IMG/VR virus record: IMGVR_UViG_3300032321_000388
Location: 54,645 to 118,644 of that record
DNA from: a virus
Taxonomy: Duplodnaviria > Caudoviricetes
DNA: 64,000 bases
Strand: one strand, 5' to 3'
Shown here in pieces: positions 17,921-58,682 of the stretch. Below the pieces are notes generated by a model. That model ran no database searches and was not told where the DNA came from. It saw only the letters and a list, made by a program, of their open reading frames with translations. The position numbers were made by a program, and so were the translations under genes. How positions within the stretch are numbered: the stretch's first letter is position 1; the number at the start of each line of letters is the position of its first letter.

Positions 17921-18976
17921 ATGGCTTTACCTTCTAGCGGAAGAATTAAACTAAGTGATGTTAATACCGAATTAGGATTATCATCTACTACACGCGTATC
18001 TTTAGGTCAAGCTACTGTTCGAACTTTAACTGGTGTTGTATCTGGTAAAATTGCTTTAGCTGCAAATGGATATGGCAAGGCAAATAGAGTATCATTAAGC
18101 AGTACATTTTCTAGTAATACAGCTAATGCTACAGTATCTGTTTCTACATTAATTGGCTATATAGCTGGAAAAACTGATTTAACAATTACAGTTAATAGTG
18201 GAGTATATGTTTATTCTACAGATACAACAGCTCCTGGATTAATTATATCTAATGCTGCAGCAGGCGATACTGTAACATTAGTTAATAATGGCTATATCAT
18301 GGGTAAAGGCGGTAATGGAGCAGGCGTAGGTGGTCAAGCTTATGGTACAACTGGTGAAGTTGGAAAACCTGGTGGTTCTGCTATATACTTGGGATGCAAT
18401 ATTTCTCTTACTAATAATAGTTATATTGGTGGTGGTGGCGGTGGAGGAGCATCAGTTGGTAGATCACGCAGCGGTGGAGCTGGAGGAGCGGGTGGAGGAG
18501 ATGCCGGTGATGCTAGCTTATCATATCCTACTTACTTAGGTGGTCGTGGCGGGGCTCCTGGTGCCGCTGGAACAAATGGTTCTAATACCGGTGTACCTAC
18601 CCATGGAGGCGGTGGAAGAATAATGCCAGGTGTCGGTGGTGGACAAAATTCTAGTGGTGGTCTTGGAGGCGGAGCAGGAGGTGGGGCTGGACCAAGAGCA
18701 TATAATACTTCAGCATCACCTTCTTTACAATTTGCTGGATACTCTTCAGGAGGAAGTGGCGGTGATGCTGCAGGATTAGCATACCTTATAAATTATGAAC
18801 ATTCTTGCGGTGGTGGAGGAGGTTGGGGAGCAAAAGGTGGAGACGCCCAATCTGGAGGAACAGGATCATATCGAAACTTACTAATGTCAGGCGGAGCTGG
18901 CGGTAAAGGCATAGAGCTTAATGGTTATTCAGTCACATATGTAACAACAGGTACAATTTATGGAGCGGTTAGTTAG
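17921..18976 (+). CDS. Glycine-rich fibre-tip adhesin (T-even gp38-like)
   Basis: N-terminal SG.I.LSDVNTELG docking motif; LVNNGYIMGKGG and TNNSYIGGGGGGG polyglycine motifs; C-terminal GTIYGAVS. Confidence 0.7.
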   Translation: MALPSSGRIKLSDVNTELGLSSTTRVSLGQATVRTLTGVVSGKIALAANGYGKANRVSLSSTFSSNTANATVSVSTLIGYIAGKTDLTITVNSGVYVYSTDTTAPGLIISNAAAGDTVTLVNNGYIMGKGGNGAGVGGQAYGTTGEVGKPGGSAIYLGCNISLTNNSYIGGGGGGGASVGRSRSGGAGGAGGGDAGDASLSYPTYLGGRGGAPGAAGTNGSNTGVPTHGGGGRIMPGVGGGQNSSGGLGGGAGGGAGPRAYNTSASPSLQFAGYSSGGSGGDAAGLAYLINYEHSCGGGGGWGAKGGDAQSGGTGSYRNLLMSGGAGGKGIELNGYSVTYVTTGTIYGAVS

Positions 18977-32527: not shown

Positions 32528-32734
32528 ATGAAGATTAAAGTAGAAAATGAATCATTGGTAAGAGATACAGGAACTAATGCTATCTTAGAGACTGATGTAA
32601 ATAAATTGCAGAAATCTAGAGCTATTAGACAAGCATTAAAAGAAAAAGAAAACAAATTAGATTATTTGATTGATAAAATAAATAAACTAGAAACAATTAT
32701 CGACGGGATGACAAATGGCAAGCTTAACACTTAG
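32528..32734 (+). CDS. Small conserved coiled-coil virion protein
   Basis: KVE..SLVRD..TNAI...D motif. Start ATG at 32528. Confidence 0.65.
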   Translation: MKIKVENESLVRDTGTNAILETDVNKLQKSRAIRQALKEKENKLDYLIDKINKLETIIDGMTNGKLNT

Positions 32735-33908
32735 ACTAGGCGCAACAGGTGCAACAGGAGTTAAAAACGCTCCACTCACTAATGCTGAGATTGATACTAA
32801 CTTTAGTAATCTTAATACTGAAGTTGGAACTAAATTAGCTTCAGCATCTTATACAGCTGCTGATGTTTTAACAAAGATTAAAACTGTTGATGGTACTGGT
32901 TCTGGTCTAGATGCAGATCTTTTAGATGGTCTTAATGCAGTTTCAGGTGCTACTGGAGCAAGTATTGTATCACGTGATTCCTCAGGTAATTTTGCTTCAA
33001 ATCAAATTACAGCTGCACAATTTATTGGTCCATTATATTTAGGTACGGCTGATACGATTGTATTTGAAGGTTCAACTGCTGATGCTTATGAGACATCATT
33101 AACTGTAACAGATCCAACTGCTGATAGAACAATTACATTTCCAGATTTAACAGGAACAGTTGTTGTTTCTGGCGCTGGTGGAGCTATTACAAATGATATG
33201 CTTGCTGGTTCTATAGCAAATTCTAAATTAGTTAATAGTTCTATTACTCTTGATGGTAACACTGTTGCATTGGGTGGATCATTAACTATTGGAGCAGGAT
33301 TAAAGAGCGCAGATAACGTATGGACAGGCACACAAACATTTAGAGATAATAAGTTTACTATCACAGATGATGTTGATAATACAAAGGTATTAGCTTTACA
33401 ACTATCAAACATTACTACTGGTACAACAAGAACACTTACTATTCCAGATGCAACTGGAACTATTGCAATTGGCCAACAAGTACTTACTAGCTCAAATGTG
33501 CAATTTGCTAATACACAACTCAGTTCATTAGGAGTTGGAACTGCTTCATCAGGTAATGCCGGTGAGATTCGTGCAACCGGTAATATATTTGCATTCTATA
33601 CGTCAGATAAAAATTTAAAAGAAAATATTGTTGCTATACCAAATGCTTTACAAAAAGTAGATCAAATTAGAGGTGTAACATTTGATTGGACAGATGCTGA
33701 GATTACTAAACGCGGTGGAGAAGATGGCTATTTTATCCGTAAAAATGATGTCGGTGTTATTGCTCAAGAAGTTGAAGCAGTATTACCAGAAGTAGTTGGC
33801 ACAAATGGTGATGGATATAAAGCTGTCAAATATGAATTAATTATTCCACTACTCATAGAAGCAATTAAGGAATTAAAAGCTGAAGTTGAAACATTGAAAT
33901 CTAAATAA
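32715..33908 (+). CDS. Tail fibre with S74 intramolecular chaperone
   Basis: PLTNAEIDTNFSNLN, GSGLDADLLDG, and TSDKNLKENI...GVIAQEVEAVLPE. Confidence 0.85.
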   Translation: MASLTLRLGATGATGVKNAPLTNAEIDTNFSNLNTEVGTKLASASYTAADVLTKIKTVDGTGSGLDADLLDGLNAVSGATGASIVSRDSSGNFASNQITAAQFIGPLYLGTADTIVFEGSTADAYETSLTVTDPTADRTITFPDLTGTVVVSGAGGAITNDMLAGSIANSKLVNSSITLDGNTVALGGSLTIGAGLKSADNVWTGTQTFRDNKFTITDDVDNTKVLALQLSNITTGTTRTLTIPDATGTIAIGQQVLTSSNVQFANTQLSSLGVGTASSGNAGEIRATGNIFAFYTSDKNLKENIVAIPNALQKVDQIRGVTFDWTDAEITKRGGEDGYFIRKNDVGVIAQEVEAVLPEVVGTNGDGYKAVKYELIIPLLIEAIKELKAEVETLKSK

Positions 33909-33923
33909 TTAAAGGGTTATATA

Positions 33924-35378
33924 ATGATATTTGAAATACTCGGTGAGCGTAGTGCTGGAGATACTAAAGTTTTCTATTATGATAATATGGAAAACATACT
34001 AAAAGATGCTGATGGAAATGTGTTTGAATTTTCTGAAAAGCCTACAATACCAGATCAGTATTTAAAAGAATATAAATCTTTTGATAAAGATCACCCATTA
34101 AAGAAGTCTAATAAGATACAATTATTAAAGATTCAAATGGGTTTAAGTTGCAATTATTCATGTGACTATTGTTCGCAAAAGTTTGTAGAGCGCGCACCAG
34201 AAACTAATAAAGATGATATTAGTGAGTTCATGCAAAAACTAGAAGTACTAGAATTTGATGAAAAGAACGGATTAAAGATTGAATTTTGGGGTGGTGAACC
34301 ATTAGTTTATTGGAAAACATTAAAACCACTTGCAGAAGCATTATACGAAAAATTTGCATCATGGGAAAGAAAACCCCAGTTTAGTATTATTACTAATGGA
34401 TCTATCTTAAGCGATGAGATCATTGATTGGTTAATGAAGATGGAATTTTCTGTTGCTATATCACATGATGGTCCTGGTCAAAGTGTTAGAGGTCCAGATC
34501 CATTTGATGATCCAAAACAGAAAGAAACTATTCTCGGATTCTATAGAATGATGACAAGATTAGGTAAAGGATTTAGCTTTAATGCTATGCTAAATTCTAA
34601 GAATAAGAGTCGCAAAGCAATATATGACTGGTTTGTAAAATTAACTGGTGATGAGAATATTAAACTTGGAGAAGGTTCTATAGTTGATGCTTATGATGAA
34701 GATGGCATAACTAATTCATTACAATCTCTTCAAGAACATTTTGAATTTAGACGTACTGCAGTATCTGATATACTACAGACAGAAGGTAAAATTGGATTCT
34801 TTGGTCAATTACAAAAGATTGACAATTTTACTAGCGGTGTACTAGCTCATAGAAATGCTAAATATGTCGGTCAAAAATGCGGCATGGATGACGAACATAC
34901 TATTGCTGTAGATTTACGAGGTAATGTATTAACATGTCAAAATGTTAGTGCATTGGAAACATCTAAAAATGATGAATCACATCTTGGTGGCAATTTAGAC
35001 GATTATGATAATGTTGAACTTAAATCAGTTACTCATTGGAGTAACCGTAAAGAATGTTCAAGTTGTCCTGTATTACATATTTGTCAAGGAGCTTGTATGT
35101 TCCTTGATAAGAAGTTTTGGGATATATCGTGTGCTAATGCTTATTCAGATAACGTGGCATTATTTGCTTTGGCTATCCATAAAATGACTGGGTACATTCC
35201 AAAGCTAATTAAGAATGATACATTACCATTAGAAAGACAAGATATATTTGGTACAATGTATAAGCATGAAGAAAAAGAAACTAAAAAGATTATACCTATA
35301 AAAGTATTCAACGAGAAAATAATGAAAATTGATGATATTGAAGTTTATGGTAAATCTGTTATTAAAGAAATTAATTAA
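33924..35378 (+). CDS. Radical SAM/SPASM-domain enzyme (peptide/protein maturase type)
   Basis: CNYSCDYC (CxxxCxxC), FWGGEPL, ITNG, ISHDGP. SPASM cysteines: CG...G.V..C...CSSCPVLHICQGAC...C. Confidence 0.92.
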   Translation: MIFEILGERSAGDTKVFYYDNMENILKDADGNVFEFSEKPTIPDQYLKEYKSFDKDHPLKKSNKIQLLKIQMGLSCNYSCDYCSQKFVERAPETNKDDISEFMQKLEVLEFDEKNGLKIEFWGGEPLVYWKTLKPLAEALYEKFASWERKPQFSIITNGSILSDEIIDWLMKMEFSVAISHDGPGQSVRGPDPFDDPKQKETILGFYRMMTRLGKGFSFNAMLNSKNKSRKAIYDWFVKLTGDENIKLGEGSIVDAYDEDGITNSLQSLQEHFEFRRTAVSDILQTEGKIGFFGQLQKIDNFTSGVLAHRNAKYVGQKCGMDDEHTIAVDLRGNVLTCQNVSALETSKNDESHLGGNLDDYDNVELKSVTHWSNRKECSSCPVLHICQGACMFLDKKFWDISCANAYSDNVALFALAIHKMTGYIPKLIKNDTLPLERQDIFGTMYKHEEKETKKIIPIKVFNEKIMKIDDIEVYGKSVIKEIN

Positions 35379-35388
35379 GTAGGGAATT

Positions 35389-36273
35389 ATGACATTACAA
35401 ACAACTGGAACACTAGCAGTATCTGATATTAATACCGAAATAGGTCTTAGTTCTACATACTCTGACGATCTAGCATTTTTAAATAATAAAATTGTGGCTG
35501 CTCAAAGACCAACTACTCCTAATTTTGGTGCATTTTACGGATTAACTCATTTTCAAAATAGCACACAAGGTAATTGTGATAATGCAAATGCTGCTGGTGT
35601 AAATTGTAATTGTGGAAATGTTAATTGTTCTGCCACAGCTAACTGCGCAGGTATTAACTGTACTAACTGTGATACTCAACCCTGGTTACAAACTAATTGT
35701 AACTGTGCTTGTACTTATAACTGCACCAATAATCAAAATTGCTTCTCATATAACTGCAATTGCAGTAAGATTATCTGTACAAAACTATATGAGATTGGAA
35801 TGTTGCCTAAAGATGTGTTTGAAGCAGATCAAGCATTTGGCGATCTATTAAAAGTAAAACATCCAGACGTTTATAATGGTTATATTGCATGGGCTCAAAT
35901 TGTTGTAGATTGGATGAGTGGCAAGGGTCCTAAGATGATGCCTTGGATGTCTGATGAAGAGTTTAGTAAAGCTGCACAAAATTGGTCTACTTCATGGGCA
36001 GAAACTATTGCTACTCCATGGGCTGATTATATGGCATATAAGATGGGTCTAAAAGAAACTATCAATAAGACTGGATTTGTATTAATGATGGTTGGTATAC
36101 CAATTAGTAAAGTTGTTGGTGTATGGCAACGGATATTTGGTAAGAGTACTAAACCTACAGGATTTGGTAAAGGCTTAATGCTTATTGGTATATTTGTCTT
36201 ACTAAAAGCAATAGTTGAAATTGGTAAATTATTTGGTCAAAGGACTGAATCATTAGCTGGGAGAAATGCATAA
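35389..36273 (+). CDS. Fibre-tip-type protein with an Asn-Cys repeat core; putative radical SAM substrate
   Basis: N-terminal TG.LAVSDINTEIG...FGAFYG motif shared with adhesins in this window. 15 Cys, 13 of them as NC, in 35572-35778. Hydrophobic C-terminal domain. Confidence 0.7.
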   Translation: MTLQTTGTLAVSDINTEIGLSSTYSDDLAFLNNKIVAAQRPTTPNFGAFYGLTHFQNSTQGNCDNANAAGVNCNCGNVNCSATANCAGINCTNCDTQPWLQTNCNCACTYNCTNNQNCFSYNCNCSKIICTKLYEIGMLPKDVFEADQAFGDLLKVKHPDVYNGYIAWAQIVVDWMSGKGPKMMPWMSDEEFSKAAQNWSTSWAETIATPWADYMAYKMGLKETINKTGFVLMMVGIPISKVVGVWQRIFGKSTKPTGFGKGLMLIGIFVLLKAIVEIGKLFGQRTESLAGRNA

Positions 36274-36623
36274 TGGCTGAAGAATTAGAAAACGTAGCAG
36301 TAAAAACAATAACTGCAAAATGTGGGCATGATGTTATATATAGACATGACCATATCATGGAATATTGGAATGAGCAAGTATATGCTCGAACATTAGCTCT
36401 ATCTCCAGAGGAAAAAGATAGATACTTCCAAATGGTAACAGACTATGGTGATATTATCAAGAAACTATTAGATGATGATAATCATGTTATCTATGATCAT
36501 GTGGCTGGTAATCCATGGGTAAATTTAGAGTCTGCCGCAGAAGAGGGTGTTATTGTAGATCGAGATAAACCAAAACAGTTGTTAGATGAATATGATGCAT
36601 GGAAGGCTCGACAACCTCAATAA
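36273..36623 (+). CDS. Hypothetical protein in the radical SAM cluster
   Basis: 116 aa, translationally coupled. Confidence 0.7.
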   Translation: MAEELENVAVKTITAKCGHDVIYRHDHIMEYWNEQVYARTLALSPEEKDRYFQMVTDYGDIIKKLLDDDNHVIYDHVAGNPWVNLESAAEEGVIVDRDKPKQLLDEYDAWKARQPQ

Positions 36624-36638
36624 TTGAAAGACTATATT

Positions 36639-37334
36639 ATGAATGACATGACAGATAAAGAACGTTATCATTGGTATCAAAATGCGCAAAACTTATTTTG
36701 GAAAAGCCCAATATGGGAAATACAGACAAAATTTGATGAAGCATTTAATGAACAGTTGCTTGAAGAGATATATGATATAGGTAAAAATATAACTTTAGGT
36801 ATAGATAAAGATCCACATAATAGTATATGGGATTATAGTAGACCTAACTTAGATATCTTAAAGCAAGAGATTATTGATATAGTTGAGACAACCATTATTA
36901 AGAACATACCTGAAGTCAGGATGTTAAATTTAAAAGGTTGTGAACATTTCATGGGTTGGATTAATGTTAGAGAACCTGGTGAAAGATTAGAAATACACGG
37001 ACATACAGAATCAGCCATAGCAGCAACATATTATATCAAAGCAAAAGAAGGATGTGGAGATTTAGTAGCATATGATACTGCTGGAGCTATTGATTGGGAT
37101 AATAATACCTTAAGTGGTAGTCCTTATGTAAGAGCAAGAAGATTTAAACCTGTAGAGGGTAGATTGATATTCTTTCCATCATATGTATTACATGGAGTAG
37201 ATGATAATAAATCAGATGACTTACGAATATCATTAAGTACGGATTTACGTAAAGTAGTTGATAAGAATTCTTCAAATACTGTTATATTAAAATCTTGGGC
37301 TGGTAGAATGGCTAAGATTAAAGAGTGGAAATAA
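36639..37334 (+). CDS. Putative 2OG-Fe(II) oxygenase (TIGR02466-like)
   Basis: WINV..PG...HGH, YYI, P.EGRLIFFPSY..HGV..N.S...RISLS. Confidence 0.8.
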   Translation: MNDMTDKERYHWYQNAQNLFWKSPIWEIQTKFDEAFNEQLLEEIYDIGKNITLGIDKDPHNSIWDYSRPNLDILKQEIIDIVETTIIKNIPEVRMLNLKGCEHFMGWINVREPGERLEIHGHTESAIAATYYIKAKEGCGDLVAYDTAGAIDWDNNTLSGSPYVRARRFKPVEGRLIFFPSYVLHGVDDNKSDDLRISLSTDLRKVVDKNSSNTVILKSWAGRMAKIKEWK

Positions 37335-37861
37335 TGTTTTGTAAATTAAACAATTCATTTGAGAAACCTCTCTATATAGTAACAGAAGGATTAAAGACAT
37401 TTACTGGTGTAGATGATAAAGGCATAGACTACAAAAAGATCTGGAGTCCAGATGCTGAAAAATTATTATCAGTATTACCAAAGAGATATTGGGATGACTT
37501 TCATTTGACAGTCATGACTATTAATAGACCAATACCTCCTCATACTGATACTGAGATCATCACTACTATTAATTTTTATATTGAGACTGGTGGAGCAAGA
37601 ACTGTATTTTATGAACCTATAGTTGATGAACCACGCACGTTTCAAATAGAGAATCAAACTGATGGTTACATATATTATCTAGAAGATTTAAAAGAAGTTG
37701 GCAGTTTTGTAGCAAAAGATTTTGAAATCTGGTGTTTAGATGTTAAAAAGATACATGCTGTTGAAGGTAATGTATCCATAAGAAAAGCTGTAACATTAGG
37801 CACATTCAAACACAAGTATGAAGATGTTGTAGAGATGTTTAAGGAAACTGGATGTTTGTAA
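37334..37861 (+). CDS. Cupin/2OG-Fe(II) oxygenase-like protein
   Basis: IPPHTD (HxD), INFY, LDV.KIH.V, R.A. Paralog of the next ORF. Confidence 0.65.
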   Translation: MFCKLNNSFEKPLYIVTEGLKTFTGVDDKGIDYKKIWSPDAEKLLSVLPKRYWDDFHLTVMTINRPIPPHTDTEIITTINFYIETGGARTVFYEPIVDEPRTFQIENQTDGYIYYLEDLKEVGSFVAKDFEIWCLDVKKIHAVEGNVSIRKAVTLGTFKHKYEDVVEMFKETGCL

Positions 37862-38421
37862 AACTAAAGAATAGTTTTAAAACTCCGTTATTCATAGCAA
37901 TAAATGAATTAGAATCTTGGGCAGGTATAGACGGTAAAGGAGTTCATCATAAAAAGATATGGAGTCCTGACCATGAACAGTTATATAGTGTATTGCCTAA
38001 AAGGTATTGGGATGATTTTGAATTAACAGTAATGACTATTAATTCTATTTTATTACCGCATCAAGATAATGATTTAATAACTACTATTAATTTTTATATA
38101 GATCCTGGTAATTATAGAACAGTATTCTATGAATCAAAAGATGGTGTAAAGATTTCAAGACCTGAGATGCAAGTAACTGGAACTAATGTTCCATTAGAAC
38201 AGCAAATAGGTTATGTTAAAGCTGTATATCAGCTTGAAGATGTTAAAGAATTAGATAGTTTCATTGCTAGACCTAATGAAGCATACTTATTAGATGTTAC
38301 AAAGATTCATAATGTTGAACCAATTGGCGAAACAACTGTAAGAAAAGCTATAGCTTTAAGAACTAAAAAGTACACATATAATGAAGTATATCATATGTTA
38401 AATGAAACTGGAAACCTATAA
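37852..38421 (+). CDS. Cupin/2OG-Fe(II) oxygenase-like protein (tandem paralog)
   Basis: LLPHQD and LLDVTKIHNV. Shares KKIWSPD...SVLPKRYWDDF.LTVMTIN with the previous ORF. Confidence 0.65.
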   Translation: MFVKLKNSFKTPLFIAINELESWAGIDGKGVHHKKIWSPDHEQLYSVLPKRYWDDFELTVMTINSILLPHQDNDLITTINFYIDPGNYRTVFYESKDGVKISRPEMQVTGTNVPLEQQIGYVKAVYQLEDVKELDSFIARPNEAYLLDVTKIHNVEPIGETTVRKAIALRTKKYTYNEVYHMLNETGNL

Positions 38422-38430
38422 GGATTAATT

Positions 38431-39219
38431 ATGTTTTATGAAAAACTAAATTTAAACATTGATATTGAAAAGCTTAGAAAAGAAGTAGTTGACAATGTAT
38501 TTCCACTAGGAGATCAAGTCATTCAAGGTGAAGAGTATGAAACTCCTCAGTATCATGGTTTTGGTGGATGGAGTATTACTACTCGTACAGGCGATTGGAA
38601 AGATGGATGGGAAACTTTTCAAACAGAACAAGGTGAAGTGTTAGAAAAGTTCTTGCCTACTCCTGAATTAGTCACTAAGTCTCTTAAGTACTTTAATATG
38701 GCACATAGCTTAGAGCATGATAAACCAACTCAAGCTTATGTTGGAGAGATTCGTAAGGTAGTAGAACAAATAACAGAATTAGGTTTGACTCCACGAAGAG
38801 TAAGAGTTGCATGTCTTAAAGCTGGTTGTAAAAGTTTAGTACATAAAGATGCAGACACATCTGAGTATATGGCTAGATTGCATATACCATTATGGACAGA
38901 TCCAAAAGCAGTGTTTATTGCAGAAAATAAACATCTACATATGGAAACTGGTTCTGCTTACATGGTTTGGGTAAATATTTGGCATCAAATTAGAAATGAT
39001 TCTGACACAGACAGATATCATCTAATAATGGATGTATATGATACTAAACATATTACTGAGCACTTTAAATATATGGGCGATTTTGCTCAATTAGAAAACT
39101 TTACTCGTGGTTATAGAGAGCAAATAGAAGCAGCAGAATTAACAGAAGATGATAAAGAATTTTTTAAAGCTATAAAAGCTAGGTATACTACAAAGAGTAC
39201 AATAGAACACGCACTATAA
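38431..39219 (+). CDS. Aspartyl/asparaginyl beta-hydroxylase-like oxygenase
   Basis: R.R...L..G.....HKD, RLHIPL.T, HMETGSAY, H..RN.SDTDRYHLIMD. Confidence 0.8.
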   Translation: MFYEKLNLNIDIEKLRKEVVDNVFPLGDQVIQGEEYETPQYHGFGGWSITTRTGDWKDGWETFQTEQGEVLEKFLPTPELVTKSLKYFNMAHSLEHDKPTQAYVGEIRKVVEQITELGLTPRRVRVACLKAGCKSLVHKDADTSEYMARLHIPLWTDPKAVFIAENKHLHMETGSAYMVWVNIWHQIRNDSDTDRYHLIMDVYDTKHITEHFKYMGDFAQLENFTRGYREQIEAAELTEDDKEFFKAIKARYTTKSTIEHAL

Positions 39220-39222
39220 ATA
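39215..39222 (+). promoter_or_regulatory. Late promoter
   Basis: TATAAATA upstream of ORF 39251. Confidence 0.7.
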
Positions 39223-39250: not shown

Positions 39251-40084
39251 ATGGCAACGATAACACTAAGAAGTATTAAAGGATCACCTCTAACTATTAC
39301 AGAGATGGACGATAATTTCAGTAATCTTAATACTGATGTAGGTAATAAAGTATCAACTTCAACCTATACTGGTTCGGATATACTAACAAAATTACTTACA
39401 GTTGATGGATCTGGTTCTGGATTAGATGCTGACTTATTAGATGGAAAAAATACAGCTTCAACAGATACTATTAATACTATAGTTGCTAGAGATGGTTCTG
39501 GTAATTTTGCTGCCAATCAAATTACAGCAACTACTTTTACTGGATCATTAGTAGTTCCTACAACTGGTTCTGTTTCTTTATCTGGATCAAGTTCAGGTTC
39601 TATTACTCTTGCTGTTCCTTCTTCTGCTGGAACAAACACAATTACATTCCCAGCTACTACAGGTAATGTGGTAACTACAGGAGATTCTGGTACAGTTACA
39701 AACACAATGCTTGCTGGTTCAATAGCAAACTCTAAACTTGCTAATAGTACAATTACTATTGATGGTAATGCAGTATCTCTTGGTGGATCTGTAAGTATTT
39801 CATCAGGTAATATTACTTGGACTGGTGCTCAAGTATTTAGAGATAATAAATGGACAATGACTGATAATACAGATACTACTAAAGCATTTGTATTTGAAGC
39901 ATCAGGTATTGGAGCTAATACAACAAGAACTCTAACAGTTCCTAATTCAGATGGAACTATTGCTACACAAACATATGTTCAAAATTATATTCAAACTGCA
40001 GGTTTTAATTCACAGGGAACAAAAACAATTTCTTCTAGTACTCCATCAGGCGGTGTTGATGGCGACATTTGGTATCAGGTATAA
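39251..40084 (+). CDS. Tail fibre protein, paralog of ORF 32715 without the S74 domain
   Basis: LR..KGSPLT..EMDDNFSNLN, GSGLDADLLDG, MLAGSIANSKL, ending PSGGVDGDIWYQV. Confidence 0.8.
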   Translation: MATITLRSIKGSPLTITEMDDNFSNLNTDVGNKVSTSTYTGSDILTKLLTVDGSGSGLDADLLDGKNTASTDTINTIVARDGSGNFAANQITATTFTGSLVVPTTGSVSLSGSSSGSITLAVPSSAGTNTITFPATTGNVVTTGDSGTVTNTMLAGSIANSKLANSTITIDGNAVSLGGSVSISSGNITWTGAQVFRDNKWTMTDNTDTTKAFVFEASGIGANTTRTLTVPNSDGTIATQTYVQNYIQTAGFNSQGTKTISSSTPSGGVDGDIWYQV

Positions 40085-52243: not shown

Positions 52244-52897
52244 ATGAAAAAAGAGCATGATAAGTTAGAGGATTATTATTTTTTTCAAACTGCTGTGTAT
52301 AAGATTCAAAAACTAGATTTTCTTGACAAAATAAGAAGTGTATCTATAGAATCTGTAACAGAAGTTAATAAAGATTTAGAATTAAATGACCTATATCCAA
52401 TTAGGATGTCTGCGGACTTAGCGCAAGACCCAAGATTGGAAGACTTTTCTAAATATGTTTTAGGAACGGCTTGGAATATACTTGATAGTCAGGGTTATGA
52501 AATGGATTATTTTGATGTTGGATTCTCATCTATGTGGTTTCAAGAACATCATAAGTATTCTGGGATGGATACACATGTTCATGGAGAAGGAACGCAGTTA
52601 AACGCTTTTTACTTTGTTGATGTTCCAGAAAATGGATCAAAGATGATACTACACGATCCAAGATCAGGAAAGGCTTTGATAGATCTACCTCAAAAAGATA
52701 TAAAAGAGATAAATCAAGCAAGCAAGATGGTGGTAATATCTCCTGAACCTGGTGATTTATTTTTTACAAATGCATATGTTCCACATTCATTTAGTAAAAA
52801 TGGTTCAGATAAATCATTCAACTTTATTCATATGAATATATTTGCTTCTCCACATAGAGAACAATCATGTTCGGTTGATGGGCCGGAAATTATATAA
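52244..52897 (+). CDS. Putative 2OG-Fe(II) oxygenase (TIGR02466-like)
   Basis: WFQEH......HVH, FYFV..P, HDPR, PEPGDL.F.NAY.PH...N. Confidence 0.78.
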   Translation: MKKEHDKLEDYYFFQTAVYKIQKLDFLDKIRSVSIESVTEVNKDLELNDLYPIRMSADLAQDPRLEDFSKYVLGTAWNILDSQGYEMDYFDVGFSSMWFQEHHKYSGMDTHVHGEGTQLNAFYFVDVPENGSKMILHDPRSGKALIDLPQKDIKEINQASKMVVISPEPGDLFFTNAYVPHSFSKNGSDKSFNFIHMNIFASPHREQSCSVDGPEII

Positions 52898-53118
52898 TGG
52901 CTCACTTCTTGATTAGATTTAATAAAACCAGAGGAACTCCTGGTAGAGGTACAGCAGATCACGCATGGAGAGTGTTTGAAGATAATAAAGAATATTTATT
53001 TAAGCATGTTAAAATTAATGTTTCATCCAAATCAGAAAGAACTGGTGAAGATTGGAATATAGCTTGTGATGGTACTTTAACAATAGATAGAGAAAATTCT
53101 ATAGCTATCATTAATTAG
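52897..53118 (+). CDS. Hypothetical protein
   Basis: 73 aa (IRFNKTRG.PGRGT.DH.WRVFE), coupled to the oxygenase. Confidence 0.7.
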   Translation: MAHFLIRFNKTRGTPGRGTADHAWRVFEDNKEYLFKHVKINVSSKSERTGEDWNIACDGTLTIDRENSIAIIN

Positions 53119-53128
53119 AAAGTATAAA

Positions 53129-54262
53129 ATGGCAATAAACGCCTCAGGTATAATAAGCATAGGTGGATCAGCAGGAGCTGGAGCCTCTGTTGCGCTTGAA
53201 CTTGGGTTATCAGGAACAGCTCAATTAGGTTTAAATTGTGCTGCACCTAGAGCGTTGGCGGGTATTCCTTCTGGAGTAATTTCTTTAAGTAATTTCTATG
53301 GAAAGTCTAATAGTACTGGTCCTACAACTGGTATATATTATGGAGGTCAAAACACATGCCAATTGGCAATTAATAGAGTAACTAGAATCAATTCTTGTGG
53401 AGCATTAATTGGATCAACAACTACTGCTGGAACTGCAAGATTTCAAAATGCTGGAGCTGAATTACCATGTAGTAGAACAGTATTCTATGGAGGCTCGTAT
53501 AGGACAGGTGGATATATTCATTATCCTACATTGAATACTGTAACTAGAATTAATAAATGCGGAGCTATTGTTGGCTCTGAAGGTACTGCAGGTCGAAGTT
53601 GTGGTACTGCAACTCATGGTGGAGTTAAAGCTGGTAGTAATGGATTATTTTATGGTGGATTTGCTGAAACTTTACCTGGTTGCTATTACTTTGGTTGTGC
53701 GACAAATTCTGTAGTAAGAATTAATAAGTGTGGAGCACAAGTTGGATCAACAACTACTGCTGGAACTAAAAGATATTATGTTCAAGGTGTTGGTATTTGT
53801 TGTAATGCAAACTTTTTTGCGTCTGGTCGATATAGTTGCGTAAATACTCCTTGTTGTTCAGCAGTTATTAATAAACTGACTAAAATTAATAATTGTGGAG
53901 CTCTTGTTTCTGAAACATGCGTGCCATCTGGAATGCGTGTTAGAAATTATGGTGGGGTTGCAGCAAAAGCAGGAAGTGTTGGTGTATTTGCATATGGTCA
54001 AGCGGATTGTGATGCTTGTACTTACAAAAAAGTTGATAGGTTAAATAAATGCGGGGCAGTAGTTGGAAGTGTAACCACTGTTGGAACTGGCACTATGGCA
54101 GGTGCTGCAGCGCAAATAGGATCAAATGCAGTAGTTTATGGCGGATATTCAGGTGGATATACTAATAAAGCAACTAGAATAAATGCTTGTGGTGCGCAAG
54201 TTGGAATATGTACTACAGTTTCAACAGCTCAATATGGTCACGGTGCAGCTAGTACTTCATAA
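53129..54262 (+). CDS. Cys-rich six-repeat (beta-propeller-like) fibre-tip protein
   Basis: N-terminal SG.ISI...ELG...ISLSNFYGKS docking motif and six (R/K)(I/L)NxCGA repeats. Confidence 0.65.
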   Translation: MAINASGIISIGGSAGAGASVALELGLSGTAQLGLNCAAPRALAGIPSGVISLSNFYGKSNSTGPTTGIYYGGQNTCQLAINRVTRINSCGALIGSTTTAGTARFQNAGAELPCSRTVFYGGSYRTGGYIHYPTLNTVTRINKCGAIVGSEGTAGRSCGTATHGGVKAGSNGLFYGGFAETLPGCYYFGCATNSVVRINKCGAQVGSTTTAGTKRYYVQGVGICCNANFFASGRYSCVNTPCCSAVINKLTKINNCGALVSETCVPSGMRVRNYGGVAAKAGSVGVFAYGQADCDACTYKKVDRLNKCGAVVGSVTTVGTGTMAGAAAQIGSNAVVYGGYSGGYTNKATRINACGAQVGICTTVSTAQYGHGAASTS

Positions 54263-55137: not shown

Positions 55138-55359
55138 ATGAATACATACAATTTAATTTCTCATAACGATGAGACAAAAACATTTGTAATTGAATCTAAA
55201 GGTCATTCAATTACTCTTAATTATCCGGAAGATATTACATTATTTTCTGAATTTACACAAGAAAATTTAGATCTACATGTATCAGGATTTATTTCAAATC
55301 TTACTGATTATGTAGAACCTCCTGTACTAAACCACATAGAAAGTGTAAGACTTGTATGA
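55138..55359 (+). CDS. Hypothetical protein
   Basis: 73 aa, coupled to the next gene (ATGA). Confidence 0.6.
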   Translation: MNTYNLISHNDETKTFVIESKGHSITLNYPEDITLFSEFTQENLDLHVSGFISNLTDYVEPPVLNHIESVRLV

Positions 55360-56480
55360 AAATTTATTTAGAAGATAGAGCTCCATCTACTTTACAAAAT
55401 TCACTTACTAGAATAGGTGTTGAGTATACTGCTGATATAAATGAAGCAGTGACTAATGCTGTTCATATAACAGATAACTTCCCTTTAGATCTAACAGGCA
55501 AAGCTGATTCAGATCTTGAGTGTCAATCATATGGTAATAAAGAATTATACGTTAGAAAGAAAAACAATTTACCAACATGTGATATACGTTTTAGAAATTT
55601 TCTTTCTGATAAACTAAGAGAATTAAATCTTCCTAATGCTGATACAATCTATCCAACTAGCGCTGAACAGGTTCAGACATTTTTTAATACACATTCATCA
55701 GTAATTATAAAACCTTTATTAGAACAAAAAGGTACACCAGGCGGTATTAGTTATGGATTTAATGTTTATACATCATATAATGATTTTATAGCGGATATCG
55801 ATATTACTCAATTTATTAGTTCACAAAATAATCATCAAGTTACTGCAAATAAAAAATGTATTCTTCAAAGTACTGTAGAAAATAGAGATAATACTTGGTC
55901 AGTATTTGGTGTAGTTAATGGAAACCAACAGTATTATTTTGATAATATTTCATTCTACAATAATAGTGAATCATCTACTACATACTTTAATTCTGACAAT
56001 GCATTAAATATTTCTGCCATGACTAATGGAGCAAAGGATCCTAGTAAAGAAAACTTGGATCAATATGGTATTTCAGAATCTATAAAAACTTTACTTAATG
56101 CATCTAATGTAAAAAATACAGTATTTTATGTAAGTGGATTAATGAAAGACGGTCAGATCTATATTCAATATATTACTACTAAAGTAATTCCATGGTTCGT
56201 CTCAACAGGATTAGAATCTACTCTTGACAGTTATTTAAAATTTGCTTTTGACATGGAATCTTCAGTAACTCCACTTAATAAATGGAGACTTTATCTACAT
56301 GCTAAATTGAAACCAGGATTAGTATATAATTCTGAAATAGTAAATGCAGCAAAAGCACTTAAACTTTATCCTGCATATGTATATTCGGATAAAGATACAG
56401 GAACATTTCATGCTATGGCAGATTCATTAGAAGAGTTACTATCAAATATTAGCTCATTCAATAGCATATATCAAATATAA
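55356..56480 (+). CDS. Divergent ATP-grasp-fold-like protein
   Basis: LRELNLP..DT, F......VIIKP, ILQ, SVFGVVNG. The canonical E-x-N motif is not evident. Confidence 0.5.
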   Translation: MKIYLEDRAPSTLQNSLTRIGVEYTADINEAVTNAVHITDNFPLDLTGKADSDLECQSYGNKELYVRKKNNLPTCDIRFRNFLSDKLRELNLPNADTIYPTSAEQVQTFFNTHSSVIIKPLLEQKGTPGGISYGFNVYTSYNDFIADIDITQFISSQNNHQVTANKKCILQSTVENRDNTWSVFGVVNGNQQYYFDNISFYNNSESSTTYFNSDNALNISAMTNGAKDPSKENLDQYGISESIKTLLNASNVKNTVFYVSGLMKDGQIYIQYITTKVIPWFVSTGLESTLDSYLKFAFDMESSVTPLNKWRLYLHAKLKPGLVYNSEIVNAAKALKLYPAYVYSDKDTGTFHAMADSLEELLSNISSFNSIYQI

Positions 56481-56493
56481 CTAGGGATAAAAA

Positions 56494-57066
56494 ATGGCAA
56501 TCGGAACCACAGGACCAATATTATTTGCAGGTACTATTGGTGTAGAACTAGGTAGATCATCTACAGCTCAGATATCTATGAGTGAGTCGGCAGTTTACAC
56601 TCTAGCAGGAACTTCAGCTGGAGCTCAGATATCGTTCTCAACATTCTACGGCAAATCTAATGCTGTAACTTATAACCTCACTATTTCATCTAATACTACT
56701 AATTACAATATGGCTACAGCAGCTACAAGTGCTGGATGGAATGGCACAGCAGCATGTACTGTAAATTGTACAATTAATTCTGGTGTAGAAGTTACATCAA
56801 CATCAACTGGTTCATATGCATTTGATACTGGTAGTGCTTTTGTTGGCAAAACTGTTACACTAAGTCTAATAAATAATGGTTATATAGTTGGTAAAGGTGG
56901 AGATGGCGGCCGAGGTGGAAATTCAGTTTTTGGGAATGCCACACAAGGTCTAACTGTTAGTGGTAATGGTGGTCCAGCATTTATTGCTCGCCAAGCTATA
57001 TCAATTACAAATAATGGCACAATAGGTGGTGGAGGTGGTGGAGGTGCTGCGAGAGCTGCACATTAA
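56494..57066 (+). CDS. gp38-like glycine-rich adhesin, N-terminal part
   Basis: ELG...ISFSTFYGKSN, INNGYIVGKGG, TNNGTIGGGGGGG. Paralog of ORF 17921. Confidence 0.7.
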   Translation: MAIGTTGPILFAGTIGVELGRSSTAQISMSESAVYTLAGTSAGAQISFSTFYGKSNAVTYNLTISSNTTNYNMATAATSAGWNGTAACTVNCTINSGVEVTSTSTGSYAFDTGSAFVGKTVTLSLINNGYIVGKGGDGGRGGNSVFGNATQGLTVSGNGGPAFIARQAISITNNGTIGGGGGGGAARAAH

Positions 57067-57090
57067 TAAAATTTTAATAGGAGAATATAA

Positions 57091-57459
57091 ATGAGTGCAT
57101 GCGAATGTTGTATTTCGCCCGGTGAGGGTGGTAGCGGTGGAGCTGGGTATGGAGCTGGCGGAGATCCAGGTTCAGCTGGCGACTTTGACTGCGGTGTTGG
57201 ATATCAGGGTGTATCGGCAAATCCTGGAACACTAACGGCTGGTGGAGCTGCTATAAACAAATATGGTGTCGCCTCAGGTGCTCCTTTTAATGGTGCTGGT
57301 GGAGCTCTTGGATCTGCCGGTGATGTCGTTCGGTACCAAGGTAATCCTTATAATGTGGGAAATGAAGGTACTCCTGGGTCTGGTGGAGCGGCTATAGCAG
57401 GTAATTCATATATTACATGGGTTGCAACTGGAACAAGATCAGGGGCAATTAACTCATAA
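57091..57459 (+). CDS. gp38-like glycine-rich adhesin, C-terminal part
   Basis: Same frame as ORF 56494, with its own AGGAG RBS. Ends GG.AI.GNSYITWVATGTRSGAIN, matching the end of ORF 17921. Confidence 0.7.
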   Translation: MSACECCISPGEGGSGGAGYGAGGDPGSAGDFDCGVGYQGVSANPGTLTAGGAAINKYGVASGAPFNGAGGALGSAGDVVRYQGNPYNVGNEGTPGSGGAAIAGNSYITWVATGTRSGAINS

Positions 57460-57479
57460 TAAACACTTGAGATTAAATT

Positions 57480-58682
57480 ATGAAAATTTATTTGAATGTA
57501 ATTAATAATAGTAAAATAGTTTCATCATTAGATCGTTTGGGAATTTCATATACAGCCGATGTTAATGAGCCAGGAATTACATCAACCATTCATATGAATG
57601 AATCAATTGATGTAATGCAATTATCTAATAAAACAAATTTAGATCCAGATTTATTATCAAAGTCTCTTGGTCACGCATCATCTTACATAAGACTAAAAAA
57701 TAATCTATCAACTCATGATATTAAGTTCAAGCATATACTTAATGATAAGTTGGCAGAATTAAATCTTCCTCATATAGATTCAGTATATCCAACAAGTATT
57801 CAACAAGTTAAAGACTTCTTTAATTTACATTCAGAAGTGTTTATTAAACCAATATCAGGACAAGGTGGTATTGTTAATAAAAAGTTAGCTTCTAATGGTG
57901 GTCATAATCTTCCTAATAATTTTGCGGAATATGCATATAAGATATTTAACTCATACGAACATTTTACATCTAGTGTAAATATGGAAGATTTTATCAGAGA
58001 TCAAAATAATTTAAATCTAATTGGATTTAAAAGATTCATACTTCAAAAAGCTATAAAACATCCAGATTATACATTCACGGTTATTGGTGCGGTTAACGGT
58101 AAACAAGAATATTACTTTGATCCATTTGTCATGTATAAACCAAATGGATCTGATTTAGGATATGGGTCAGGTAATTTTAATGGTCTTTATAATGAAGATA
58201 ATACTCCAAATGAAGAAGCTATAAGACATGCTGCAAAGGATCCGAGCAAAGCCAATGTCGATCAATATAACATATTAGAAACTATTAAAACACTATTTAA
58301 TGCTACTGAAGTAAAGAATACTATGTTCTATATTCAAGGAATTGTTATAGACAGTGTTTCATATCTTCAGGATATAGGAATACATGTTCCGGCTTCGTAT
58401 CAGAATTCTCATAGTGATGATATTCTTGACAGTTATTTAAAATTTACTTATGATATCGATCCAATAGTCATGAATCCATTAAAAAAATGGGGCATATATC
58501 TTTATATTAAATTAAGAGATGGTCTACAGTATAATGAAGAGATTTTAGATTTTGCCAGATCTATTGGTATTAAACCTGTGACCGTTAGAGATAATACACA
58601 AACTGGAATATTTCATGCTTATGCTGATACTCTAGATGATCTGGTAAATAATATAAATACCTTTAATAAGAAGTACCAATAA
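57480..58682 (+). CDS. Divergent ATP-grasp-fold-like protein (paralog of ORF 55356)
   Basis: K..L...LAELNLP, VFIKPISGQGG, FILQKAI, YLQDIG. Confidence 0.55.
   Translation: MKIYLNVINNSKIVSSLDRLGISYTADVNEPGITSTIHMNESIDVMQLSNKTNLDPDLLSKSLGHASSYIRLKNNLSTHDIKFKHILNDKLAELNLPHIDSVYPTSIQQVKDFFNLHSEVFIKPISGQGGIVNKKLASNGGHNLPNNFAEYAYKIFNSYEHFTSSVNMEDFIRDQNNLNLIGFKRFILQKAIKHPDYTFTVIGAVNGKQEYYFDPFVMYKPNGSDLGYGSGNFNGLYNEDNTPNEEAIRHAAKDPSKANVDQYNILETIKTLFNATEVKNTMFYIQGIVIDSVSYLQDIGIHVPASYQNSHSDDILDSYLKFTYDIDPIVMNPLKKWGIYLYIKLRDGLQYNEEILDFARSIGIKPVTVRDNTQTGIFHAYADTLDDLVNNINTFNKKYQ

Follow-up and report, generated by a model that had tools for sequence, protein, structure and literature searches.

Small antimicrobial peptides and a few cellular proteins are known to be cross-linked by radical S-adenosylmethionine (SAM) enzymes, but no such modification is known in virus particles. 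Among the enzymes with a SPASM domain, QhpD cross-links Cys to Asp or Glu within QhpC, a protein of quinohaemoprotein amine dehydrogenase. PapB (freyrasin) and CteB (SCIFF) have a full SPASM domain and form multiple non-alpha thioethers in Cys-rich cores. In the streptococcal RaS-RiPP (RiPP: a peptide made by the ribosome and modified post-translationally) system NxxcB/NxxcA, a SPASM enzyme links Cys to the Asn beta-carbon, Asn being the beta-thioether acceptor with Asp, Gln, and Ala tolerated (PMC9389541). Finally, CrpC of Methanococcus voltae installs ranthionines in the Cys-rich protein CrpA (PMC13692751). Here, an enzyme related to these maturases is described from a 64-kb stretch of DNA, referred to as the window, which forms the final part of the 118.6-kb uncultured virus record IMGVR_UViG_3300032321_000388 (CheckV completeness 74%). 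At 32715-39219, a run of genes encodes a tail fiber with an S74 chaperone domain, a radical SAM/SPASM enzyme, a 294-amino-acid (aa) protein with an Asn-Cys (NC) core, a 116-aa protein (p116), and four 2-oxoglutarate (2OG)-type oxygenases (Table 1). Enzyme and NC-rich protein are obligately paired, and taken as a whole the run is probably a late maturation cassette for a phage host-recognition protein.

The pairing was followed in both directions. Starting from the NC family, 80 viral loci were fetched, 72 of which contain the NC core, and the radical SAM gene lies just upstream of it in every one (72/72). In the reverse direction, the 80 closest radical SAM loci have an NC gene 3-1472 bp downstream in 78 cases, and the other two end at a contig edge. 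These counts bear out the original prediction that this radical SAM clade and NC-rich open reading frames (ORFs) co-occur in phage metagenomes, and on them a chance adjacency of the two genes is rejected. The link of the enzyme to a Cys-rich candidate substrate also extends to 62 of 80 more distant loci. Seven further viral loci encode KIICT, the C-terminal domain of the 294-aa protein, behind poly-Gly or other upstream parts instead of an NC core, and these have neither a radical SAM enzyme nor an oxygenase, although three of them (L076, L077, and L079) retain the same N-terminal motif. Judged by gene content, the seven core-less loci are a natural control for the coupling of enzyme and core. 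The two-way linkage, the kinship of the enzyme, and the absence of enzymes where Gly stands in for the core together make it highly probable that the NC core is the substrate.

The 294-aa protein has no Pfam or PHROG family match, and its predicted division into three parts stood up to closer inspection: an adhesin-type N-terminal motif is followed by a core with 15 Cys and a hydrophobic, helical C-terminal domain. The core spans 69 residues (62-130), and 13 of its Cys are preceded by Asn. In the AlphaFold2 (AF2) model of the whole protein, the predicted local distance difference test (pLDDT) score is below 50 for the core, ~78 for the N-terminal module, and ~80 for the all-helical C-terminal domain. 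More than 580 clusters, all metagenomic, make up the NC-protein family, in which the pattern is conserved; across 106 aligned members, the core holds 11-18 Cys, consists of 24% Asn and 19% Cys, and contains many invariant positions. Asn precedes 84% of the core Cys in these members, as opposed to a background of 25%, and the residues found directly before a core Cys are N, Q, A, and D. Only one of 183 six-frame ORFs in the window has an NC tract, which together with the conservation in the >580 clusters rules out a chance pattern; in the distant genome loci described below, such tracts occur in 63 of 6291 ORFs. A stricter DNA pattern for NCNC[ND]C had no match in the 118.6-kb record, being too strict to inform. 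The N-terminal module is common to the Gly-rich adhesin-like ORFs at 17921 and 56494, both of which weakly match phrog_2056 (labelled tail fiber/host specificity), and to the Cys-rich ORF at 53129, and sequence comparison thereby confirmed a kinship that had been proposed from the motif. The architecture recalls that of the T-even adhesin gp38, in which a small protein combines a module for attachment at its N-terminus with a low-complexity core for recognition, and in relatives poly-Gly replaces the NC core. Yet, no Pfam or PHROG match to gp38 was found, and the core is NC-rich instead of Gly-rich.

The enzyme has a Radical_SAM match (PF04055, 37.3 bits) with a CX3CX2C motif at residue 76, and its SPASM domain, at about residues 319-403, reaches 34.2 with TIGR04085 (cut-off 27). 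Both the CX3CX2C motif and all seven SPASM Cys (CX13GX4C, CX2CX5CX3C, and the final C) are kept in 52 distinct homologs. Its top NCBIfam matches are the PapB, QhpD, CcpM, and SCIFF maturases, all makers of Cys thioethers, and CteB (PDB 5wgg, E 3e-10) is among its best solved relatives. In a first step, the enzyme would act on the NC core and install several thioether cross-links of the ranthipeptide/NxxcB type, joining the sulfur of Cys to a carbon in the side chain of Asn or Asp, and an NCNC run would then be read as overlapping NxxC motifs, which recalls the Cys-to-Asn beta-carbon link made by the SPASM enzyme NxxcB. Thioether formation is the most likely chemistry because the close enzyme families make Cys thioethers, NxxcB takes Asn, and CrpC acts on a whole protein, and on this kinship it may be held with a little more confidence than doubt. 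Like QhpC and CrpA, the candidate substrate is a protein and not a peptide, although these two, a subunit of a cellular enzyme and an archaeal protein, are not components of phage fibers. The differences from the peptide systems are also clear. While NxxcA is short, leader-bearing, and quorum-regulated with one motif, the candidates here are phage proteins of ~130-620 aa with 4-18 Cys, and no short leader-core precursor of the kind seen in ranthipeptide systems was found among them. The conserved Asn stands at position -1 here and not at -3 as in NxxcB, which was compared by description only. PapB and CteB in turn differ in that the enzyme of the window scores far below their equivalog cut-offs, has no detectable fused RiPP recognition element, and is paired with a structural-type phage substrate and a set of 2OG oxygenases.

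It might instead be proposed that the enzyme is an oxidase resembling anaerobic sulfatase maturases, converting Cys to formylglycine and so placing reactive aldehydes at a tip. An enzyme of this type is indeed among the matches (TIGR03942, E 1.7e-13; PDB 4k36), and GenBank KP202971.1 labels the homolog in Achromobacter phage JWF an anaerobic sulfatase-maturating enzyme. However, the TIGR03942 score of 50.4 lies far below its cut-off of 349 and is weaker than those of the thioether maturases, the core has no C/S-x-P-x-R sulfatase motif, and no sulfatase gene is found nearby, making formylglycine formation very improbable.

Besides the radical SAM enzyme, the four 2OG-type genes (36624-39219) all have a double-stranded beta-helix (DSBH) fold with an H-x-D...H iron triad. 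The first matches 2OG-FeII_Oxy_5 (PF13759) with 61.3 bits against a cut-off of 27, while its score with TIGR02466 (51.7 bits) is under the cut-off of 62.5, and the last matches Asp_Arg_Hydrox (PF05118) with 40.6 bits against 22.6. The two compact paralogs between them are 55% identical and share an invariant H-x-D...H...R pattern; their assignment comes through the structure model only, a double-stranded beta-helix (pLDDT 91.9) whose top Foldseek matches are the protein hydroxylases NO66, MINA53, and YcfD. In a second step, the AspH-like, TIGR02466-like, and two DSBH enzymes would hydroxylate the same core, probably at Asn/Asp beta-carbons, and Asn/Asp hydroxylation by the AspH-like enzyme is suggested because of the known activity of its family. 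Among the 57 marine loci with at least 4.5 kb of sequence downstream, homologs of the AspH-like enzyme are present in all 57, of the DSBH paralogs in 56, and of the TIGR02466-like enzyme in 54. Nevertheless, the claim that four oxygenases belong to the system needs narrowing: the AspH-like enzyme is constant in these loci, but the closest relatives (L002/L003) lack the other three, and their cassette consists of the radical SAM enzyme, the NC protein, a p116-like protein, and the AspH-like enzyme.

Tandem dioxygenase arrays have been described in cyanophages, for which small-molecule metabolites were proposed, and the same study predicted that beta-hydroxylases and sulfotransferases modify tail-collar/collagen-like proteins (Iyer et al. 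2010, PMC2938197). The cassette resembles both the pairing of AspH with the Cys-rich epidermal growth factor (EGF) domains that it hydroxylates, with an AspH-family enzyme beside a Cys/Asn-rich domain, and these arrays, with tandem unrelated 2OG oxygenases in marine T4-like phages, though that study tied the arrays neither to an NC-rich protein nor to a radical SAM enzyme. The radical SAM and NC genes of several relatives (L085 5440-6896, L108, L123, L087 3886-4605, and L093) are separated by one or two genes for FA_desaturase-like membrane di-iron proteins, and in these loci the C-terminal tail of the NC protein is of another, more hydrophobic kind. A Sulfotransfer_2 protein occupies the same position in L092 (5478-6125), and in L013 (14265-15782) a B12-binding radical SAM enzyme follows the AspH-like gene. 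The presence of optional extra enzymes inside the cassette is the behavior of tailoring clusters.

Where the modified protein would reside is best approached through more distant systems. Radical SAM homologs with 45% identity are encoded inside the fiber module of two cultured phages, Achromobacter phage JWF and Ralstonia phage RSP15. In JWF, the T4 gp36-like fiber gp028 carries the run NCNCDCNCNCS, directly followed by a Hint domain (PF05203, E 3e-12, from C308), so that self-cleavage would leave the NC run as the fiber C-terminus; the radical SAM gene lies two genes downstream. In RSP15, the side fiber gp048 ends in an NC motif and lies three genes upstream of the radical SAM gene. No oxygenase is shown in either phage, as RSP15 gp046 compared with the AspH-like enzyme of the window gives a non-significant E of 3, and JWF gp029 does not resemble c0, the TIGR02466-like oxygenase of the loci described next. 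These are 80 bacterial-genome loci with radical SAM homologs at 35-60% identity, mostly from Limnohabitans, Burkholderiaceae, and other proteobacteria, and probably representing prophages. The 62 loci counted above encode a same-strand ORF with an (N/D-C)n tract, one per locus except for two in L234, and the tract usually forms the last 10-25 residues of a protein sharing a fiber motif with the S74 fiber of the window. Nearly all tract-less loci lack upstream room, and L217 has a shorter NC tail. In L180 (4681-5721), the conserved pre-tail motif is present, after which the frame runs into unrelated sequence; this NC-tailed fiber looks disrupted and may be a pseudogene or an assembly error.

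The gene order in the prophage-type loci is fiber, c1, c0, sometimes c2 and a second c0, and then the radical SAM gene. The c0 oxygenase is found in 46 of 58 such loci and aligns with the TIGR02466-like enzyme of the window (hhalign 93.6%, E 2e-7, with the doubtful member RSP15 gp046 included in the c0 alignment), and c2 is a Pfam 2OG oxygenase. The conserved c1 protein of ~275 aa (L164 435-1292 and homologs) is encoded between the NC-tailed fiber and the oxygenase in 44 prophage-type loci, has a homolog in RSP15 gp047 (L158 4314-5129), and may be a fiber assembly factor or a further partner. Three loci (L162, L163, and L184) encode instead a ~130-aa protein that has the N-terminal motif of the 294-aa protein and a core homologous to that of the window at its C-terminal end, without KIICT, and in L162 and L163 this stand-alone gene sits between an S74 fiber and the radical SAM gene. 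A reading of these three as fiber-NC fusions was discarded, as the long ORF of L184 is a stop-to-stop artefact and the real proteins stand alone. In two other loci, the fiber tail (L228 3172-4032 and L230 3-530) carries Ser-Tyr-Cys triplet repeats before a short NC run, and a second, shorter radical SAM gene (L228 4974-6026) is found between the fiber and the main enzyme.

Building on these systems, the core would, in a third step, become a rigid, redox-insensitive knot formed in the reducing cytoplasm, where disulfides cannot form, and in a fourth, the protein would join the tail fiber through its adhesin-type N-terminal module and form or cap the distal tip. Regarding the idea that the NC protein is a fiber-tip component, NC tracts do end fiber-like proteins in distant phages and probable prophages, but adjacency to an S74 fiber has turned out to be lineage-specific. 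A location in the virion or at the fiber tip appears slightly more likely than not from these comparisons.

The geometry of the fiber tails invites another explanation, in which the Cys form a metal-thiolate ladder (Fe, Zn, or Cu) along the trimeric fiber axis, the structure depends mainly on bound metal instead of covalent cross-links, and the radical SAM enzyme makes a minor or different modification. Cys occupy every second position in these tails (65-79% at offset ±2; 52-74% at ±4), therefore all thiols would face the same side of the strand, and the lack of a confident autonomous fold in the core is what would be expected of a cofactor-dependent region. The T4 gp37 needle reportedly contains His-x-His iron sites. 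However, metal binding does not call for an enzyme of its own, whereas linkage to the SPASM enzyme is obligate whichever of the two genes is taken as the start. The nearest families of that enzyme all form Cys thioethers, and the conservation of Asn at -1 goes far beyond what a ladder alone would demand. A metal ladder is thus improbable next to thioether cross-linking.

In T4, ATAAATA-type motifs mark late, gp55-dependent transcription, the class that includes the virion genes. In the window, TATAAATA motifs stand directly before structural genes, and no late-promoter motif is found inside the cassette between AATAAATA before the fiber and position 39215. The fiber and the cassette are therefore probably one late transcript, as the next such motif is found only at 39215. 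Relatives carry ATAAATA at a constant -33 to -36 ahead of two of the genes, radical SAM (20 of 48 distinct upstream regions) and NC (29 of 57). It is essentially never seen ahead of the oxygenase genes, and 1.7% of random 80-bp windows contain it. Across the window, ATAAATA is depleted (21 found versus ~34 expected), 18 of the 21 are on the plus strand, and the full TATAAATA sites are mostly just upstream of gene starts, which fits T4-type late promoters under selection.

Several points weigh against a modified fiber tip. As regards the chemistry, the enzyme scores far under every NCBIfam equivalog cut-off (PapB 83.4 versus 340; SCIFF 57.1 versus 425), including those of TIGR03906 (69.9 versus 453) and TIGR04463 (45.7 versus 525), and its reaction can therefore not be transferred by homology. 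No PqqD match, and hence no RiPP recognition element, was detected in the enzyme, whose ~60-residue N-terminus does not align to the recognition element of CteB, and library and profile searches with the p116 family gave no PqqD-like signal and no match in PDB or Pfam. Asn is present at -3 of only 34% of Cys in the aligned members compared to 84% at -1, so the NxxC spacing is not specifically conserved. Moreover, radical SAM enzymes are oxygen-sensitive and 2OG oxygenases need O2, so that joint action in aerobic marine hosts calls for an explanation. As regards location, the cassette directly follows an S74 fiber only in the window, L002/L003, and the type-B loci L162/L163, and the original prediction of such a position holds for these; in most relatives, the cassette is located between PhoH and gp59/gp32, outside the fiber genes. 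Finally, the last helix of KIICT is hydrophobic (hydropathy score KD19 of 2.09 at residues 263-281), and with KD19 at least 1.6 in 92% of members it is of membrane-anchor grade, odd for a fiber tip. A portable, membrane-like module of this kind complicates a simple fiber-tip picture.

It could be speculated from the last two points that the 294-aa product is not a virion protein and is tail-anchored by its C-terminal helix in the inner membrane of the infected cell, with the same enzymes modifying it in the cytoplasm; it might then contribute to superinfection exclusion, remodel the envelope, set the timing of lysis, or give rise as a precursor to a released RiPP-like compound. The terminal helix and the usual place of the cassette in an auxiliary-gene region agree with this, as do the membrane FA_desaturase-like enzymes between the radical SAM and NC genes of some relatives and the structural matches of KIICT: Foldseek searches of the 294-aa model against PDB gave no solved fold for the domain, only weak matches to membrane helical bundles, and a search of BFVD with the same model gave uncharacterized homologs only. 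On the other hand, homologous NC cores without KIICT stand beside S74 fibers (L162 and L163), NC tails end fiber-like proteins in dozens of loci, fusions of KIICT to giant structural-type DUF4815 proteins and to Gly-rich adhesin-like proteins exist as well, and late-promoter motifs precede the genes. A membrane-bound, non-virion product therefore seems unlikely, and the maturation of a host-recognition protein is the preferred reading.

Even so, KIICT is the least explained part of the system. A total of 550 representative clusters contain the domain, in proteins that are 150-1859 aa long and invariably end with it. It mostly comes after poly-Gly, as in the DUF4815 giants and Gly-rich adhesin-like proteins, and sometimes after short fiber-type NC tails. 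In four proteins (P0145, P0185, P0189, and P0194), KIICT directly follows an apparent Hint/intein C-terminal block ending in VHNK. Among deposited phages, a KIICT protein is found only in Synechococcus phage SynMITS9220M01, whose gene 028 (L001 5627-7519) encodes the domain after Gly-rich, poly-Pro, and poly-Arg runs and directly follows a gene for a giant 'fiber protein'. Fibers are known to carry C-terminal modules that are removed after folding, such as S74 in the fiber of the window and Hint in JWF gp028. KIICT, on the other hand, is helical in the model and has neither a Pfam match nor a Hint or S74 signature, and any cleavage of it is only inferred. In a fifth step, KIICT would nevertheless probably act as an auxiliary assembly or anchoring module and not as part of the mature tip, which is weakly suggested by analogy because the NC tract is elsewhere a real C-terminus or becomes exposed by Hint. 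Removal of KIICT from the mature protein is conceivable on the same analogy, if rather doubtful.

If correct, this maturation would provide an enzymatic, cytoplasm-compatible substitute for disulfides and a previously unrecognized class of post-translational modification of virions, and would add a new layer to both host recognition and particle stability in SAR11- and cyanobacteria-type myophages, which are among the most abundant viruses of the ocean, as well as in many proteobacterial phages and probable prophages. Given the NC tracts at the tail-fiber ends of related phages, phages probably harden or tune their host-binding tips with the chemistry of peptide antibiotics. More tentatively, many tailed-phage lineages may use a dedicated radical SAM/SPASM enzyme to place thioether staples in Asn-Cys ladders at the distal receptor-binding ends of their fibers, possibly across the three chains of a trimer and often together with 2OG oxygenases, with KIICT holding or presenting the marine precursor before being removed. 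Such a system would account for two features of marine phage genomes that have so far lacked an explanation, the 'radical SAM cassettes' and the dioxygenase arrays, offer a large natural library of protein-modifying SPASM enzymes, and affect fiber engineering, in which a swapped tip may need its own maturase. It is directly testable, as the cultured phages JWF and RSP15 carry versions of it. In full-text literature searches, no paper turned up on the coupling of a radical SAM enzyme with NC-tailed fiber proteins, and the 'radical SAM maturase' of cyanophage S-SCSM2R (PMC12801897) was set aside as a relative, being given only as a putative antibiotic gene with no relatedness shown.

The window itself is assigned to a marine T4-like myovirus because it contains T4-type gp59 and gp32 genes and a long series of fiber genes, and at the DNA level its closest cultured relative is Pelagibacter phage HTVC008M. 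The site of the cassette corresponds to the "host-recognition cluster" of pelagimyophages, a term of Zaragoza-Solas et al. All genes at 32715-39219 are on the plus strand and close-packed, with gaps of 0-15 bp or small overlaps (Table 1); every ORF of the original prediction was recovered at its coordinates, and the gene identities it proposed agree with family or structure matches. The S74 match of the fiber (PF13884 Peptidase_S74, 58.6 bits) covers residues 297-361 and is thus C-terminal, as in self-cleaving fibers, and the protein also matches many PHROG tail-fiber families. The DUF4815 family (PF16075), represented upstream of this fiber, is also found directly downstream of the radical SAM homolog in Ralstonia phage RSP15 (gp044), and DUF4815 proteins of other phages bear KIICT (e.g., a fusion in L064).

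Table 1 Features of the cassette and its immediate surroundings in the window.
Feature	Position	Strand	Evidence or remark
DUF4815 giant structural-type protein, 1732 aa	27328..32526	+	PF16075 E 1.1e-65; context gene upstream of the fiber
T4-type late-promoter-like motif AATAAATA	32677..32684	+	~30 bp before the fiber start
Tail fiber with C-terminal S74 intramolecular chaperone domain, 397 aa	32715..33908	+	PF13884 E 7.5e-16
Radical SAM/SPASM maturase (predicted), 484 aa	33924..35378	+	PF04055; TIGR04085
NC-rich protein, 294 aa	35389..36273	+	ORF; Asn-Cys core
N-terminal module (residues 1-58) of the NC-rich protein	35389..35562	+	Common to Gly-rich adhesin-like proteins
Asn-Cys core (residues 62-130), predicted substrate region	35572..35778	+	15 Cys, 13 as Asn-Cys
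KIICT domain (residues 127-294), all-helical C-terminal module with membrane-like terminal helix	35767..36270	+	AF2 model, hydropathy, homologs
p116, conserved 116-aa protein	36273..36623	+	tblastn homologs in 38/57 loci with room downstream; alignment A6
TIGR02466-like 2OG-Fe(II) oxygenase, 236 aa	36624..37334	+	PF13759 61.3 bits; phrog_81
Compact DSBH 2OG-oxygenase-like paralog A, 178 aa	37325..37861	+	Invariant H73, D75, H144, R153; AF2; Foldseek
Compact DSBH 2OG-oxygenase-like paralog B, 189 aa	37852..38421	+	55% identity to paralog A, same invariant residues
Asp/Asn beta-hydroxylase-like 2OG oxygenase, 262 aa	38431..39219	+	PF05118 40.6 bits
Next late-promoter motif TATAAATA	39215..39222	+	Downstream boundary, before fiber-like gene 39251-40084

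Two other regions of the window contain adhesin-like genes. At 55356-58682, the ORFs 56494-57066 and 57091-57459 apparently represent one Gly-rich adhesin-like protein split in two, and the pair sits between paralogous proteins of ~374-400 aa (55356 and 57480) that have no family assignment. At 52244-54262, a second 2OG-FeII_Oxy_5 oxygenase (52244-52897) is encoded shortly upstream of a 377-aa protein that has the N-terminal motif of the 294-aa protein, six internal repeats, and 21 Cys, only two of which occur as Asn-Cys, and a second module of enzyme plus adhesin, this one lacking a radical SAM enzyme, may lie here.

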